Shown: piece by piece, positions 1 to 6,068 of the stretch
Numbering within the stretch: the first letter of the stretch is position 1
Layout of the letters: each line of letters opens with the position of its first letter
Sequence record: NC_007821.1
Direction: 5' to 3' (one strand)
DNA length: 6,068 bases
Source of the DNA: Enterobacteria phage WA13
Notes under the pieces: generated by a model
What the model was told of the DNA's origin: nothing
Database searches by the model: none
The model's input: only the letters and a program-made list of their open reading frames with translations
Made by a program: the position numbers and the translations under genes

Positions 1-27
1 TTGTTGACATTCCCTAAACCCTTATGA

Positions 28-64
28 GACTCTTGCTTCAACGAATGAAGTAGGAGTCTTTATT
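28..64 (+). terminator. Terminator-like hairpin with U-rich tail just downstream of gene H (across the circular junction); candidate TH
   Basis: Arms 28-40 (gactcttgcttca) and 46-58 (tgaagtaggagtc) pair over 13 positions, two of them G-U wobbles in RNA, with loop acgaa (41-45), followed by TTTATT (59-64). The 3' arm contains the TAGGAG Shine-Dalgarno (51-56) of the ORF starting at 65. Hand-folded, no energy calculation. Confidence 0.45.
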
Positions 65-433
65 ATGAAACCCGCTTACCGCTTGACTCATCCGATTCTC
101 GGCTCTTGGTTGTTTAAGTGCCCCGTTTATATCCGTTATGAGCACCTTCATCACGGTCGTCTTATCAAGGTTCGCGCTGTTCGTGATTTGTCCCCGCGTC
201 AGCAGCTTATTGCTAACCCTAAAAACTGCTTTGACGTTGTTATTGCTGAGATTGACGTTACTTATTGTTCTGTCACTTATTTTGATTATGAGGCTGAGGA
301 ATATACCGAGTGTGATTCAGAAACTATGGATAATATCCTTGCTTATATTAACTCTCCTCATTCCCTTCGCTCTGAGGAGGATTCATCCGTTGATGTTGAC
401 GATATGGCGTGGCTTTATGAAATTGCGGAGTAA
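65..433 (+). CDS. Hypothetical protein (122 aa) in the H-A spacer; not one of the 11 canonical microvirus genes
   Basis: ATG at 65 preceded by TAGGAG (51-56) with 8-nt spacing, TAA at 431-433. By hand count about half of codons end in T versus about a quarter of first positions, the same bias seen in genes D, F, G and H here. The overlapping alternative frame (138..509) gives a Leu-rich product typical of off-frame translation. Acidic C-terminus; I recognise no homologue. Confidence 0.45.
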   Translation: MKPAYRLTHPILGSWLFKCPVYIRYEHLHHGRLIKVRAVRDLSPRQQLIANPKNCFDVVIAEIDVTYCSVTYFDYEAEEYTECDSETMDNILAYINSPHSLRSEEDSSVDVDDMAWLYEIAE

Positions 434-436
434 GTT

Positions 437-526
437 ATGGAAACTGTTGTCGGAAAATTTATTGCTTTGGCTGTTGTTGCTCTTATGCTGTATGGAATTG
501 CCCGCTTAATTCGGAGGTTCCCGTGA
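437..526 (+). CDS. Hypothetical small hydrophobic peptide (29 aa, METVVGKFIALAVVALMLYGIARLIRRFP)
   Basis: ATG at 437 with GGAG (427-430) 6 nt upstream, TGA at 524-526. Single predicted membrane-spanning stretch followed by a basic RLIRR tail. Codons mostly T-ending (act gtt gga.. gct gtt gtt gct ctt). Same frame as ORF 65..433, one codon after its stop. Below the 60-aa cutoff of the supplied ORF track. Confidence 0.3.
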   Translation: METVVGKFIALAVVALMLYGIARLIRRFP

Positions 527-699
527 AGTATTTTAGTCTTGTGGATGAACATTATGCTTATTGCCCTGATACGAGGATTTTGCACATTACTCGTAGCCGT
601 GTTTCTGACCCTCGTTATGAGCGTCGCTTTCTTACTGATGAGGAACATTTTGCACTTTTGGATTGGTTGAAAAATCGCCCAACTTATATTAATTCTTGA
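523..699 (+). CDS. Hypothetical protein (58 aa), GTG start
   Basis: GTG at 523 with GGAGG (513-517) 5 nt upstream, overlapping the stop of the preceding small ORF (GTGA, 523-526). No in-frame ATG exists, so the start must be non-ATG. TGA at 697-699. Very strong third-position T bias (roughly 60% of codons by hand count). Product MKYFSLVDEHYAYCPDTRILHITRSRVSDPRYERRFLTDEEHFALLDWLKNRPTYINS. Confidence 0.35.
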   Translation: MKYFSLVDEHYAYCPDTRILHITRSRVSDPRYERRFLTDEEHFALLDWLKNRPTYINS

Positions 700-725
700 C
701 AGGCCTTTAAAATACCCTCTATATT
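696..725 (+). promoter_or_regulatory. Sigma70-type promoter upstream of gene A (PA)
   Basis: TTGACA (696-701), 18-nt spacer, TATATT (720-725). Position corresponds to the phiX174 PA promoter just upstream of gene A. Confidence 0.5.
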
Positions 726-756
726 GCCCTCATAGGTTCACTACGAGGGCTTTTTT
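726..756 (+). terminator. GC-rich hairpin plus T6 tract immediately upstream of the gene A start; intrinsic-terminator-like
   Basis: gccctc (726-731) pairs with gagggc (745-750), with an inner tag/cta helix (733-735 / 741-743), followed by TTTTTT (751-756). The 3' arm is the gene A Shine-Dalgarno GAGGG (745-749). Confidence 0.45.
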
Positions 757-758
757 GC

Positions 759-2243
759 ATGGCTTCTGAAATCTTCTCTGATGTTGTTAAGTCTGTTTGG
801 TCGCACGCTACGGCTAAGCACGCTCATCTTCGTATGGCTGTTCAGGTTGATAATCGTAGTCGCCTTCTTTCTGATTTGGTTTACCAGTTGGAAAAGCGCC
901 TTTCCGAAGAGACTCATTTGGATGATGAGACTTATGCCCTTTATGAATCTCAGACTGGCCTTTTGGAAGATCATATGGCACTGGTTCGGAAGTGTGCAGC
1001 CCAACTTGATAATAGTAACACTATAGACCACCGTACCCCTTTGGATGCCGAATGTGTTTTCCTGTTTGAAATGATTTGCCCAGGCGTTCGCTACGGTAAA
1101 ACGTTGAATTCTCTTTGGACTAAGTATGTTGCTCAATGGCCTGAGAAGTTAATTCGTCAAGAGTTAGACATGGTTAAGCCTTTATCCTTTAAGGATGAGG
1201 TTGCTAAGTACATGGAGAAGATGCAGGAAAAAACACGCAAAAATCGCATGACTCAAAAAGTAATTAATGAGATGCGTATTGCTCACCAAAAGGGCTGGTT
1301 TTTCGTATTTGATACGTTGACACTTGCTGATGATCGTTTGCAGGCTTTTAATGAAAACCCCAATGCTCTTCGTGATTATTTCAGGACTGTTGGTCGAGCT
1401 GTTCTGCGCGCTGAAGGTCGTTCGGTTAAGGATTCCTACAACGATTGCTATCGCTATCTTTGTGTGCCGGAGTTTGGAGGTCAGCACGGTCGTCTTCATT
1501 GGCATGTTGTGCATATGGTGCGGACTCTTCCTTTGGGAAGTTACGACCCTAATTTCGGTCGCAAGGTACGTAATTATCGCCAGATTAACTCGTTCCGTGG
1601 CATGTGGCCTTATGGCTTCACGCAACCGATAGCTGTACGCTATCAACATGATGCTTATTCTCGCAAAGGTTGGTTGTGGCCTGTTGACAAATCAGGTAAA
1701 GCAATGCAGAGTAAGCCCTATCAGGCGGTCGCATGGTATGTGACCAAATATGTAGCTAAGCAATCTGACCAGCGTCAGAAAGCTATTACTGAGAGACAAA
1801 AAAAATGCAAGAATCCACTTATGGCAATCTGTCTGAAAAAGGAATTCAGAGTTCGCAGCAGCCGGAAACTCGGAATGGAGTTACCGTCGATGGCGCATCT
1901 CAGCAACAAAGTGCTTCTGGAGCTGAGCCGAATCAGCTTCGATTCCAGCCCTCTGTATCAGATAGTGAAAGAGAACGCCAAAAAGCAATTGACCTTGAAC
2001 ATCGGCGCGCTGCCTTTGCACGTCATTTTGGATGTGCGCCCGGAAGTGAGAAGTATGTTGAAAAATATCCGTCGTTTGATGAAAAAGACACCCGAGTTCA
2101 ATTGGCAGAGTTCTATCGCTTCAATGACGGTCACCTTAAAAAATGGGGATATTTCTGATGAAGCACGTCAATACATTATTGATGCAGGAATTACGCCTTT
2201 TGATTTGCGAGCTAAAGCGACTCAAACTTTCGGCGGTAAGTGA
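759..2243 (+). CDS. A: Replication initiation protein A (rolling-circle HUH endonuclease)
   Basis: 494-aa ORF, ATG 759, TGA 2241-2243, SD GAGGG 745-749. C-terminal two-thirds align by eye with phiX174 protein A (GWFFVFDTLTLADDRL, NPNALRDYFR, CVPEFG, HUH-like GRLHWHVVHM, two-tyrosine motif WYVTKYVAK, C-terminal GITPFDLRAKATQTFGGK). Contains the conserved ori(+) sequence. Confidence 0.92.
   Translation: MASEIFSDVVKSVWSHATAKHAHLRMAVQVDNRSRLLSDLVYQLEKRLSEETHLDDETYALYESQTGLLEDHMALVRKCAAQLDNSNTIDHRTPLDAECVFLFEMICPGVRYGKTLNSLWTKYVAQWPEKLIRQELDMVKPLSFKDEVAKYMEKMQEKTRKNRMTQKVINEMRIAHQKGWFFVFDTLTLADDRLQAFNENPNALRDYFRTVGRAVLRAEGRSVKDSYNDCYRYLCVPEFGGQHGRLHWHVVHMVRTLPLGSYDPNFGRKVRNYRQINSFRGMWPYGFTQPIAVRYQHDAYSRKGWLWPVDKSGKAMQSKPYQAVAWYVTKYVAKQSDQRQKAITERQKKCKNPLMAICLKKEFRVRSSRKLGMELPSMAHLSNKVLLELSRISFDSSPLYQIVKENAKKQLTLNIGALPLHVILDVRPEVRSMLKNIRRLMKKTPEFNWQSSIASMTVTLKNGDISDEARQYIIDAGITPFDLRAKATQTFGGK
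1002..1031 (+). other. Viral (+) strand origin of replication, 30-nt protein A recognition and nicking sequence
   Basis: CAACTTGATAATAGTAACACTATAGACCAC differs at only about 3 positions from the phiX174 origin CAACTTGATATTAATAACACTATAGACCAC as I recall it. The expected nick is between G1008 and A1009. Lies inside gene A, as in phiX174 and G4. Confidence 0.8.
1212..2243 (+). CDS. A*: A* (in-frame internal initiation product of gene A); start uncertain
   Basis: phiX174 makes a 341-aa A* from an internal ATG shortly upstream of the conserved GWF..DTLTLADDRL block. Here the in-frame ATGs are 1212, 1221 and 1248; 1212 has AAGGATGAGG (1191-1200) upstream and gives 343 aa. The start cannot be fixed from sequence alone. 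Confidence 0.3.
   Translation: MEKMQEKTRKNRMTQKVINEMRIAHQKGWFFVFDTLTLADDRLQAFNENPNALRDYFRTVGRAVLRAEGRSVKDSYNDCYRYLCVPEFGGQHGRLHWHVVHMVRTLPLGSYDPNFGRKVRNYRQINSFRGMWPYGFTQPIAVRYQHDAYSRKGWLWPVDKSGKAMQSKPYQAVAWYVTKYVAKQSDQRQKAITERQKKCKNPLMAICLKKEFRVRSSRKLGMELPSMAHLSNKVLLELSRISFDSSPLYQIVKENAKKQLTLNIGALPLHVILDVRPEVRSMLKNIRRLMKKTPEFNWQSSIASMTVTLKNGDISDEARQYIIDAGITPFDLRAKATQTFGGK
1805..2158 (+). CDS. B: Internal scaffolding protein B (in a different frame inside gene A)
   Basis: 117-aa ORF inside A. The C-terminus LAEFYRFNDGHLKKWGYF matches the phiX174 B C-terminus (..AEFYRFHDAEVNTFGYF); the divergent N-terminal half is typical for B. Weak SD GAGAG 1791-1795. Confidence 0.85.
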   Translation: MQESTYGNLSEKGIQSSQQPETRNGVTVDGASQQQSASGAEPNQLRFQPSVSDSERERQKAIDLEHRRAAFARHFGCAPGSEKYVEKYPSFDEKDTRVQLAEFYRFNDGHLKKWGYF

Positions 2244-3088: not shown

Positions 3089-4372
3089 ATGTCAAACGTG
3101 CAAACTTCCGCTGAACGTATTCCTCACGACCTTTCTCATCTGGTTTTTGATGCAGGCAAAATTGGTCGTTTAAAGGTTGTTTCTTGGACTCCTGTTGTTG
3201 CAGGTGATTCTTTTGAGCTTGATATGATTGGCGCTATTCGCCTTTCCCCGCTTCGTCGTGGCCTTGCTGTTGACTCTCGTGTTGACCTGTTCACGTTTTA
3301 TGTCCCTCATCGTCATGTATATGGTGAGCAGTGGATTGATTTTATGAAGCAAGGTGTTGATGCTGCTCCTTTGGCCCCTGTTCAGTGCTCTCGCGGTTGG
3401 GATAGTGCTCAGTATCTTGCTACTATTCCGTCTAGTAACTTAAAGGTTCCTAAGTTTCTTCATCAAGGTTACCTGAACATTTACAATAATTACTTTAAAG
3501 CTCCGTGGATGGATGACCTGACTTATGCCAACCCGTCTAATATGGAGGGTGAAGATGTTCGTTTTGGTGTTCGTGCATGTAACTTGAAAACTATTTGGAC
3601 TGCTCCGCTTCCTCCGGATACTGAAACCTCTCATTCTATGGAGACTGAAACCAACTCCATTGACATTATGGGTTTGCAGGCCGCTTATGCTCAATTACAT
3701 ACTGAGCAGGAGCGTGATTACTTCATGACTCGTTATCGTGATATTGTTAACGAATTTGGAGGTAGTACTTCTTATGATGCGGATAATCGTCCTTTGCTTG
3801 TTATGCATTCTGAGTTCTGGGCCTCAGGCTATGATGTTGACGGCACCGACCAAAGCTCTCTCGGTCAGTTCTCCGGTCGTGTCCAGCAGACGTTTAAGCA
3901 TTCAGTACCGCGATTCTTCTGCCCTGAGCATGGCACTATGTTCACACTCGCATTGGTCCGCTTCCCGCCGACTCATGAAATGGAGATGCATTACTTAGTT
4001 GGTAAAGAAGATTTGACTTATACTGATTTGGCTTGTGACCCTGCTTTGATGGCTAACTTGCCTCCTCGTGAGGTTAATATGTCTCAGTTCTTCCATTCTG
4101 GAAGTGCTAGTGCTAAGTTTAAGATCGCTGAAGGTCAGTGGTATCGCATGCAGCCTGATCGCGTTGCATTGCCGTATAACTATCTTGATGGTTTTCCGTT
4201 CTATAGCGCGATTCCGTCTGATGATATTAAGCAGCGCGTTCTGGTTAATACTGATAACTACGATGAGGTTTTCCAGTCTATGCAGCTTGCGCACTGGAAT
4301 ATGCAGACTAAGTTTAATTGCACCATTTATCGTAATATGCCGACCACTCGCGACTCTATTATGACCTCTTGA
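3089..4372 (+). CDS. F: Major capsid protein F
   Basis: 427-aa ORF. Long stretches match phiX174 F (MSN.QT.AER.PHDLSH, FTFYVPHRHVYGEQWI, GYLNIYNNYFKAPWM, DIMGLQAAYA, LVMHS..WASGYDVDGTDQ.SLGQFSGRVQQT.KHSVPRFF.PEHGTMFTLALVRFPPT, C-terminal PTTRDSIMTS). Confidence 0.95.
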   Translation: MSNVQTSAERIPHDLSHLVFDAGKIGRLKVVSWTPVVAGDSFELDMIGAIRLSPLRRGLAVDSRVDLFTFYVPHRHVYGEQWIDFMKQGVDAAPLAPVQCSRGWDSAQYLATIPSSNLKVPKFLHQGYLNIYNNYFKAPWMDDLTYANPSNMEGEDVRFGVRACNLKTIWTAPLPPDTETSHSMETETNSIDIMGLQAAYAQLHTEQERDYFMTRYRDIVNEFGGSTSYDADNRPLLVMHSEFWASGYDVDGTDQSSLGQFSGRVQQTFKHSVPRFFCPEHGTMFTLALVRFPPTHEMEMHYLVGKEDLTYTDLACDPALMANLPPREVNMSQFFHSGSASAKFKIAEGQWYRMQPDRVALPYNYLDGFPFYSAIPSDDIKQRVLVNTDNYDEVFQSMQLAHWNMQTKFNCTIYRNMPTTRDSIMTS

Positions 4373-4955: not shown

Positions 4956-5090
4956 AAGGCTGCCGCACTCCCGGTTAGATGCCTGCCTAGTGTAGGGCAG
5001 ACCGAGCCGTACGGAGATACCCGATAAACTAGGAACGTGGAAGGCGCAAGCCGCCTTCCCTCCTGCTAAGCCCCAAAAGGAGTTACAGCG
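4956..5090 (+). other. G-H intergenic region with stable hairpins; probable complementary (-) strand origin (DnaG primase-dependent, G4-type)
   Basis: 135-nt non-coding spacer, far longer than J-F or F-G. Contains a perfect 8-bp GC-rich hairpin (ggaaggcg / caagc / cgccttcc, 5039-5059), the palindrome ccgtacgg (5007-5014) and a ctgcc/ggcag stem-loop (4984-5000). From memory, the primase-dependent origin of alpha3/St-1/phiK maps between G and H, whereas G4 has it between F and G. H Shine-Dalgarno AAGGAG at 5077-5082. Confidence 0.4.
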
Positions 5091-6068
5091 ATGTTAGGTG
5101 CCGTTGTAGGTGGTATTGCTTCAGCCTTAGCTGGTGGAGCCGCTTCTAAGCTGTTTGGTGGTAAACCTGCCGCTCAAGCCGCTACCGAGTCCTCTGGCCT
5201 TTCTAATGGTCAAGGCGTTATTGGTATGGATCAAGATGCTGGTATTCAGTCAGCTATTCAGGGCTCTAATGTTCCCAATGGTCAGATTCCTGCCCCCACG
5301 CAGACTGGTGGCGTTATGTCTGATGCTAAAAATATGATTAAGAATGCTGGTAAAGATTTGCTTGATGGCGTTATGACCGCTGGAAGTGATCGCATTAAGC
5401 AGGCATTGGTTGATAAGTTGAGTGGTAACGATGCAAAGAAACAAGGACAAGCAACCCGTGATTACTTGGCTGCGGCCTTCCCTGAGCTCAATGCATGGGA
5501 ACGTGCTGGAGCTGGTGCTTCCGGTGCCGGATTGGAGTCTTCCGGCCAGAATCAGCAAAAGGAGTTGATGCGTATGCAGCTGGATACTCAGAAGGATATT
5601 GCTAAGATGCAAATGCATAATAATTTGCAGATTGCTGGTATTCAGTCCGCTACTTCTCGCGAGAATACGAAGGATTCAGTTTATGCTCAGAATGAGATGC
5701 TTAAATTTAATCAACAGGAGTCACAGGCACGCGTTGAGTCTATCCTCGCCAACACTGACCTTACGGCTAAACAGGCTGCCCATGAAATTATGAGAATGGC
5801 CCTTACTCGTGCTCAGGAGACTGGTCAGCATTTAACTAATAGTCAGATTATGGCATTGGAGAAAAAAGTTTATGCAGAAATCGGAAAAATTCATCAAGAT
5901 ACTCAAAACGCTCGTTATGGTAGCTCTCAAGTTACTGCTGCGGCGAAAGATGTTACGAATATGATTACCGATGCCACTTCTGGTGCTGCCGATTGGGTCT
6001 CTCAACAGTGGAATTCTTTCTTTAAAGATGGCAAGTCTAATGGTATTCCCCTCAATACCAGAAAATAA
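5091..6068 (+). CDS. H: Minor spike / DNA pilot protein H
   Basis: 325-aa ORF with AAGGAG 8 nt upstream. Matches phiX174 H (M.GA..GGIASALAGGA.SKLFGG, RDYLAAAFPELNAWERAGA, IAGIQSATSR.NTKD.VYAQNEML, QNARYGSS). The stop codon TAA is the last three bases of the window. Confidence 0.92.
   Translation: MLGAVVGGIASALAGGAASKLFGGKPAAQAATESSGLSNGQGVIGMDQDAGIQSAIQGSNVPNGQIPAPTQTGGVMSDAKNMIKNAGKDLLDGVMTAGSDRIKQALVDKLSGNDAKKQGQATRDYLAAAFPELNAWERAGAGASGAGLESSGQNQQKELMRMQLDTQKDIAKMQMHNNLQIAGIQSATSRENTKDSVYAQNEMLKFNQQESQARVESILANTDLTAKQAAHEIMRMALTRAQETGQHLTNSQIMALEKKVYAEIGKIHQDTQNARYGSSQVTAAAKDVTNMITDATSGAADWVSQQWNSFFKDGKSNGIPLNTRK

Follow-up and report, generated by a model that had tools for sequence, protein, structure and literature searches.

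Enterobacteria phage WA13 is a microvirus of the genus Alphatrevirus, the alpha3-like phages, and its sequence of 6068 nucleotides (nt) (NC_007821.1), referred to below in its full length as the window, represents the complete circular genome. Its interval between genes H and A carries three consecutive open reading frames (ORFs), here called ORF1, ORF2 and ORF3 (Table 1). Judged from the way it changes among related phages, the first of these, ORF1, is almost certainly a real, selected protein-coding gene of the alpha3-like microviruses. Phage WA45 is 99.6% identical to the window across the H-A region, and one IMG/VR contig (UViG_638275865) matches the window at every base. The interval comprises positions 1 to 758, and 635 of these 758 nt (~84%) are taken up by the three ORFs, all of which are called by metagenome gene finders. 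The corresponding interval measures 63 nt in phiX174 (H end 3917, A start 3981) and 58 nt in G4. This agrees with a first-pass annotation of the window, which had noted a spacer of 758 nt here against about 60 nt in phiX174. The ten annotated genes are all located outside ORF1.

Table 1. The H-A interval of phage WA13 and the two genes that flank it; positions are those of the window.
Feature	Position	Strand	Description
Gene H	5091..6068		WA45 annotation transferred
TTGACA box	4..9	+	Immediately past the H stop codon; repeats the pA -35 box (696-701) in direct orientation
Upstream hairpin	26..60	+	15 bp, dG -20.8 kcal/mol, followed by a U-rich tract at 61-64 and beyond
ORF1 Shine-Dalgarno sequence (SD)	52..56	+	AGGAG (TAGGAG at 51-56), 8 nt before the ATG at 65
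ORF1	65..433	+	ATG start, 122 codons, stop TAA at 431-433; soluble protein of 122 amino acids (aa), 14.3 kDa, isoelectric point (pI) 4.8
ORF2	437..526	+	29-aa hydrophobic peptide with basic C-terminus (METVVGKFIALAVVALMLYGIARLIRRFP); SD GGAG at 427-430
ORF3	523..699	+	58 aa; GTG start; SD GGAGG at 513-517; stop TGA at 697-699 inside the pA -35 box
Promoter pA (gene A)	696..725	+	TTGACA, 18 nt, TATATT; 11/12 consensus positions
T_H-type terminator hairpin	726..756	+	GCCCUC...GAGGGC; hairpin 726-750, then U6
Gene A	759..2243		WA45 annotation transferred

The composition of ORF1 is that of a gene of this phage. The fraction of T at third codon positions is 0.53, compared with 0.48 in D, 0.51 in F, 0.65 in G and 0.47 in H, and none of 20,000 shuffled sequences reached a value as high. 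The first-pass annotation had described such a frame-specific enrichment, similar to that in D, F, G and H, and this observation is borne out. With a codon-usage model trained on A, F, G and H, the ORF1 frame scored +0.38 bits per codon and the other frames -0.76 and -1.31. The near-consensus TAGGAG with 8-nt spacing that had also been noted reads as described; however, it lies within a hairpin (see below). The AGGAG and its spacing are invariant across 15 sequences.

For the comparative analysis, we used 52 loci from GenBank, IMG/VR and metagenome and SRA assemblies (individual loci carry L numbers below), which contain 29 distinct ORF1 sequences. A tblastn search returned a full-length ORF1 homologue, with 71–98% identity, in all 25 alpha3-group records of the phage collection. 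The frame is intact in 13 of 14 GenBank relatives and, at a length of 120–129 codons, in 27 of the 29 distinct sequences. Some of the loci had been found by ORF3 look-ups and hence were unselected for ORF1 integrity; every one of them has an ORF1 of 120–122 codons. Two copies are broken. In the 1980s alpha3 sequence (L004/L035), one C is missing from a C-run near position 134, and the other copy, from St-1 (L009), has a 1-nt deletion near window position 229 (near position 228 in L009). The alpha3 break probably is a sequencing error, given its place in a C-run and the intact ORF1 of the resequenced genome, DQ085810.2. All length changes among the intact copies are multiples of three. They comprise the loss of 6 nt, the gain of 102 nt behind codon 3 in L015-L017 and the indels of the 129-codon form in L018. 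In the lineage with the 102-nt insertion (L015, region 1927..2115; also L016 and L017), the protein has 154 aa; the basal stem of the upstream hairpin and the SD are retained in these loci, and the apex of the hairpin is replaced.

Substitutions in ORF1, counted by parsimony on a neighbour-joining tree, are distributed as 128, 73 and 371 over codon positions 1, 2 and 3 (p ~5e-58). The ratio of nonsynonymous to synonymous changes per site (pN/pS, Nei-Gojobori) is 0.27 in the ORF1 frame, compared to 1.21 and 1.65 in the two shifted frames. It amounts to 0.10 in the N-terminal half and 0.43 in the C-terminal half. When the same ten genomes were used for all genes, pN/pS was 0.06 for A, 0.09 for ORF3, 0.13 for D, 0.17 for H, 0.25 for F, 0.27 for ORF1 and 0.52 for G, which places ORF1 inside the range of the canonical genes (0.06–0.52). 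The first-pass annotation had proposed to align the H-A spacers of alpha3-like phages and to look for a synonymous bias in this frame, and had named frame-disrupting changes in relatives, or the lack of such a bias, as evidence against a gene. The alignment gave mostly intact copies, in-frame indels, a third-position bias and a pN/pS below 1 in this frame only. It had read ORF1 as a conserved ORF or else as an accessory gene of alpha3-like phages that the annotations lack, and this reading is supported both by the conservation of the frame and by the substitution pattern.

Two other explanations of the open frame have to be weighed against this one. The H-A spacer might be non-coding, and ORF1 a chance open frame in a region that is conserved because it acts in cis as DNA or RNA, for example as an origin, in packaging or in mRNA stability. 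The classical alpha3-group GenBank records indeed leave the region intergenic, and conserved hairpins are present at both of its ends. This would explain neither the threefold periodicity of the substitutions nor the confinement of low pN/pS and of indels to one frame. The confident AlphaFold2 fold described below and the coverage of most of the interval by three ORFs argue in the same direction. In addition, no RNA family in Rfam matches anywhere in the window, and the complementary-strand origin lies elsewhere, in the G-H spacer. A chance frame is refuted by the codon-level tests, and we leave it a very small residual probability. A still smaller one remains for the idea that the real gene is an overlapping ORF at 138..509 (+ strand, 123 codons), which is open in the window, in WA45 and in MG945254. 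Stop codons interrupt it in 11 of 14 relatives, its pN/pS is 0.97, and in composition it equals ORF1 shifted by one base, so that the T enrichment falls on codon position 2. Its interruption in most relatives, together with this pN/pS, rules it out as a gene. In MG945254, the ORF is labelled 'similar to hypothetical protein'; it is unconserved and a by-product of the ORF1 composition.

The H-A region was also considered as the site of the complementary-strand origin. The G-H spacer (4956..5090, 135 nt) is 85% identical to the F-G spacer of G4, which contains the annotated complementary-strand origin and its RNA primer. By this similarity, the primase-type (G4-type) origin of this phage sits between G and H, which rules out the H-A region in this role. 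Another spacer is variable in length among the relatives: in NC29 (L012, 2480..2712), the C-D spacer has ~234 nt compared to ~43 nt in the window, and this accounts for the genome size of 6259 nt.

ORF1 very probably is the first member of a three-gene cassette, ORF1-ORF2-ORF3, which occupies the location of the roughly 60-nt H-A spacer of phiX174 and G4. ORF2 starts 3 nt past the ORF1 stop codon, and the GTG start of ORF3 overlaps the ORF2 stop codon (GTGA; in L018 the overlap is ATGA instead). The 3-nt gap and the GTGA overlap therefore point to joint translation of the cassette. ORF2 and ORF3 are conserved at all loci, and ORF2 has an ATG start and a length of 28–30 codons in all 52. It encodes a single-pass hydrophobic peptide with a grand average of hydropathy (GRAVY) of 1.27 and a pI of 10.9. 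Its changes are distributed as 46/16/34 over the three codon positions (p 8e-4), with the fewest at position 2, and the replacements exchange one hydrophobic residue for another. Coding by ORF2 is well supported by this pattern, which is less decisive than those of ORF1 and ORF3. For ORF3, pN/pS is 0.09–0.10 in frame vs 1.0 and 1.8 out of frame, and the changes by codon position are 57/30/135 (p 4e-18). Together with A, it is one of the two most constrained genes that we measured.

AlphaFold2 predicts four strands and one helix for ORF3, with a mean predicted local distance difference test score (pLDDT) of 83. We detected no relationship between ORF3 and ORF1, and homologue searches with ORF3 gave no hits outside the alpha3-like phages. 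A conserved stretch of ORF3, used as a DNA pattern, matched one metagenome contig and eight IMG/VR contigs. In phiK (L010, 522..734), the pA -35 box reads TTGGCA; the ORF3 stop codon is thereby lost, and ORF3 is extended to 70 codons. With ORF1, ORF2 and ORF3 counted on these patterns, alpha3-like phages probably carry 14 genes, not the 11 of the textbooks.

We noticed that both ends of the cassette carry a similar control module, which consists of a -35 box, a hairpin that bears an SD, a U-tract and an ATG. One copy lies at positions 1-67, the other at 696-761, and they bracket the cassette. The copy in front of gene A is common to all three genera (alpha3-like, phiX174, G4). Its promoter pA is the best sigma-70 match in the genome and is collinear with pA of phiX174 and G4, and the 3' arm of its hairpin holds the Shine-Dalgarno sequence of gene A. 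In phiX174, the annotated transcription start at 3962 is located inside the 5' arm of the terminator hairpin. The TTGACA of the upstream copy likewise aligns with the pA -35 box of phiX174 and G4. This layout suggests that the cassette arose as an insertion accompanied by a duplication of the H-A control module; at least it looks like one.

In the upstream copy, TTGAC is invariant in 15 sequences, and the 16-nt spacer that follows varies in sequence without indels. The resulting promoter candidate (TTGACA-16 nt-GAGACT) matches the consensus at 9 of 12 positions, with A2 and T6 present. The box may be the -35 element of a weak promoter that belongs to the cassette itself, a suggestion that we make tentatively from the sequence. 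The hairpin at 26-60 has a z-score of -4.7, and 0 of 200 shuffled sequences fold as well. Its 3' arm includes the ORF1 AGGAG. The basal stem is invariant in 15 sequences, and the hairpin is retained in alpha3, ID21, L018 and, with a replaced apex, L015. The tract past the stem reads UUUAUUAU in the window and contains U6-U7 in alpha3, St-1 and Lilleven. By its form, this hairpin looks like an intrinsic terminator; it is absent from the consensus listing of the terminator scan.

A possible mode of ORF1 expression can be drawn from this arrangement. Late transcripts that read through from H would fold the 26-60 hairpin, which would result in partial termination and in masking of the ORF1 SD. Transcripts initiated at the weak promoter, around position 38, would not contain the 5' arm, so that they would not be terminated there and would leave the SD free. 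phiX174 shows this same arrangement at pA/T_H. In either case, the cassette message would end at the 726-756 terminator. We give such hairpin-gated expression of ORF1 an even chance.

ORF1, like ORF2 and ORF3, is absent from the reference annotations, although databases do contain it under the label of a hypothetical protein. No coding sequence is annotated at this position in the classical alpha3-group GenBank records. The 1989 alpha3 record (M25640), in turn, annotates ribosome-binding sites at exactly the starts of ORF1, ORF2 and ORF3, the Lilleven record lists all three ORFs as hypothetical proteins, and MG945254 marks ORF1 together with the out-of-frame ORF discussed above. The first-pass statement that no named gene is annotated here in phiX174, G4 or alpha3 holds for the classical alpha3-group records; the hypothetical protein of the Lilleven record had been missed. 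The searchable literature contains no discussion of ORF1-ORF3, older mention being possible, and the paper describing Lilleven does not discuss the ORF1 orthologue. Three observations go beyond the first-pass annotation: ORF1 is the first of three linked ORFs, its SD lies in a terminator-like hairpin, and a duplicated pA/T_H-type module brackets the cassette.

ORF1 diverges faster than any other element of the locus. The ORF1 protein of L018 (820..1209, SRR20337160) is 36% identical, while the flanking H, ORF3 and A show 88%, 93% and 80% identity; it forms an extremely diverged island within a locus that is otherwise alpha3-like. The C-terminal half (248..430 in the window; L005-L014) falls into at least four allele classes with 63–73% nucleotide identity between classes. 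The distribution of these classes shows no correlation with the backbone formed by F, H and A (Spearman ~0). For example, alpha3 and NC35 share 69% identity in F and 94% in the C-terminal half of ORF1, and the window and ID32 share 97% in F and 71% in this half. L022, a copy from a metagenome, combines two of the classes as a mosaic within the gene. St-1 is a viable laboratory phage that carries the 1-nt deletion in ORF1 mentioned above; if this frameshift is real, ORF1 therefore would be dispensable in the laboratory.

The ORF1 protein lacks a signal peptide and any membrane segment (GRAVY -0.31) and consists of a conserved basic N-terminal half (residues 1-66, pI 9.7) and a variable acidic C-terminal half (residues 67-122, pI 4.05), with 16 D/E residues and one K/R residue in the latter. 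AlphaFold2 predicts a compact structure of nine strands and two helices from an alignment of 26 sequences (pLDDT 90.6; predicted template modelling score, pTM, 0.82), and the BFVD model of the Lilleven orthologue superposes on it with a template modelling score (TM) of 0.96. The acidic half is placed as beta-strands inside this single compact fold. The acidic C-terminal tail of the first-pass annotation is accordingly acidic, as stated, and not a tail: the charge extends over a whole half of the protein, which is modelled as part of the fold. A free acidic tail that acts as a mimic, like the tail of single-stranded DNA-binding protein (SSB), is ruled out by the same placement of the C-terminus. 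The fold is predicted to be compact and beta-rich, without a match among solved structures.

The sensitive profile and structure searches that had been suggested for the 122-aa product thus yielded a confident predicted fold and no match that carries a function. The sole recurrent profile match of ORF1 was PHROG 1743, 'transcriptional repressor', with E-values of 0.08–0.19, which are below significance. A structure search of BFVD returned only the Lilleven orthologue and a marginal Brevibacterium phage protein (E 5.6e-3, TM 0.44). Among the eleven canonical Bullavirinae families (A, A*, B, C, D, E, F, G, H, J and K), there was no match of ORF1 to a Pfam microvirus family. Word-indexed searches of 5.8 billion proteins, one with ORF1 and one with an alignment to which the lone divergent family member P0020 had been added, found ORF1 in alpha3-like contexts only, and a hidden Markov model (HMM) scan of 1.84 billion representative proteins retrieved only alpha3-like ORF1 homologues. 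P0020 is likewise situated between H and A. The family comprises ~226 distinct member sequences in 19 clusters, and every member sequence that was read has 122 aa; the sole named member is 'hypothetical protein [Escherichia phage Lilleven]'.

As a whole, the explanation that we find best, namely a selected gene in a cassette, with gated expression and a role in the interaction with the host, appears quite likely. For its functional part, we favor a host-interaction factor, active in counter-defence or host takeover or, together with ORF2, in exclusion, and rate its chances somewhat below even. This role is preferred to a structural or replication function because ORF1 is small, soluble, dispensable-looking, fast-evolving and freely recombining, and also because it combines a conserved core with a variable acidic face and is linked to a membrane peptide. 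ORF1 would act by binding to other proteins, with the N-terminal half as an invariant core and the variable acidic half setting the specificity. A more far-reaching version, which appears rather unlikely to us, is that of a self-contained three-gene counter-defence or exclusion cassette with a new-fold ORF1, carried by phages that rank among the smallest lytic DNA phages. The deeply diverged and freely recombining alleles would then be the footprint of an arms race against the host or against competing phages, and expression would be gated in the style of pA/T_H, by transcripts that begin within a terminator hairpin.

Two further functions can be envisaged. ORF1 and the ORF2 membrane peptide might form a superinfection-exclusion or lysis-timing module, with ORF2 as the effector and ORF1 and ORF3 as cytoplasmic partners or regulators. 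Small membrane proteins are common among phage exclusion and lysis factors, and the conserved ORF2 peptide is hydrophobic, with a single pass and a basic C-terminus. The tight linkage of the genes, by the 3-nt gap and the GTGA (in L018, ATGA) overlap, and the flanking promoter-like and terminator signals, which resemble those of an autonomous accessory unit, would also fit. Yet ORF1 itself has no membrane segment or signal peptide, family and profile searches gave no similarity to a known exclusion or lysis protein, and the high conservation of ORF2 and ORF3 next to a freely diverging ORF1 speaks against a tight co-adaptation of the three. We consider such a module improbable. Even less probable is a nucleic acid-binding regulator that acts through the basic N-terminal half, for example on the pA/T_H region or on the expression of gene A. 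The matches in this direction are below significance and span only ~45 residues. When ORF1 was examined for an OmpR/ToxR-type winged helix, the AlphaFold2 model contained neither the three-helix bundle nor the recognition helix. Moreover, a regulator of a phage target should track the phage backbone, which the ORF1 alleles do not, and in phiX174 and G4 this module is regulated in the absence of a protein of this kind.

Several points weigh against the interpretation of ORF1 as an expressed host-interaction gene. The searchable literature yields no transcript, ribosome-occupancy or protein data for ORF1. Since the SD is buried in a strong hairpin behind a terminator-like signal, expression of ORF1 from late mRNA may be very low. 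The hairpin is conserved but nearly without covariation, the promoter scan does not include the upstream candidate, and the -10 hexamer of the latter matches at only three of six positions. As to the protein, the alignment behind the AlphaFold2 model is shallow (26 close sequences), and the five models span pLDDT values of 52–91. Searches of Pfam, PHROGs, NCBIfam, PADLOC and the PDB sequence profiles gave nothing significant for ORF1, and neither its sequence nor its predicted structure indicates a function. The pN/pS of ORF1 never exceeds 1, so that positive selection is undemonstrated, and the fast divergence of the C-terminal half could stem from relaxed constraint. Finally, a sequencing error could underlie the St-1 frameshift, in which case the support for dispensability would be lost.

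The Bullavirinae are the textbook example of minimal DNA phages and are described with 11 genes. Within this subfamily, phiX174 has served in an argument that the completeness of a genome annotation is demonstrable (PMC6883844). Alphatrevirus would have two more genes under selection as strong as that on the capsid genes, and probably a third one, ORF2. The reference annotations and resources derived from them, such as PHROGs, miss the ORF1 family. Work on experimental evolution, hybrid incompatibility and genome design with WA13, NC28, ID- and alpha3-type phages treats changes in the H-A region as non-coding. The combination of dispensable-looking ORFans, a confident model of a predicted novel fold and an easily synthesized 6-kb genome offers a cheap test of the role of accessory genes in a minimal lytic phage, and the duplicated pA/T_H module would be a clean system for the study of hairpin-gated expression.

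The closest counterpart to ORF1 is its orthologue in phage Lilleven (QBZ71502.1, UniProt A0A4D6DYX2, with the neighbours QBZ71503 and QBZ71504), which is 78% identical. It has the same position between H and A and belongs to the same trio of 122, 29 and 58 aa; the difference is one of annotation, which in Lilleven is automatic only and in the classical alpha3-group records lacks such a coding sequence altogether. Among better known accessory proteins, gene K of phiX174 encodes a small, non-essential, membrane-associated protein. It provides a precedent for non-essential small proteins in the Bullavirinae, and ORF2 is likewise small and hydrophobic. However, the sequences are not similar, ORF1 is an acidic soluble protein, and the window has its own gene K at 2158-2319. 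Ocr and the ArdA-type DNA mimics are small acidic anti-defence proteins of phages. ORF1 resembles them in style only, as it is small, net acidic, fast-evolving and without cellular homologues. In contrast to these mimics, its acidity is restricted to the C-terminal half, its predicted fold is beta-rich and compact and not that of an elongated helical mimic, and there is no similarity in sequence or fold.

In its arrangement, the cassette is reminiscent of the morons described for lambdoid phages, which are autonomous accessory transcription units between conserved genes. It is inserted between genes that are adjacent in the related genera, is followed by a terminator (which is also the ancestral T_H) and preceded by a promoter-like box, and appears to be dispensable and to be exchanged by recombination. 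It differs from a moron in that its composition is phage-like and not foreign (GC content of 0.42 vs 0.45; third-position T, 0.53; codon usage) and that its promoter is only putative. Moreover, its host genome is that of a strictly lytic 6-kb single-stranded DNA phage, in which there is no role in lysogenic conversion. The best match to the control regions is the pA-T_H module of phiX174 and G4, whose layout is found at both ends of the cassette and aligns with that of these phages. A lengthened stem takes the place of the -10 region in the upstream copy, so that a hairpin of 15 bp and -20.8 kcal/mol stands where phiX174 has one of 8 bp and -12.8 kcal/mol, and this copy precedes ORF1, not gene A.

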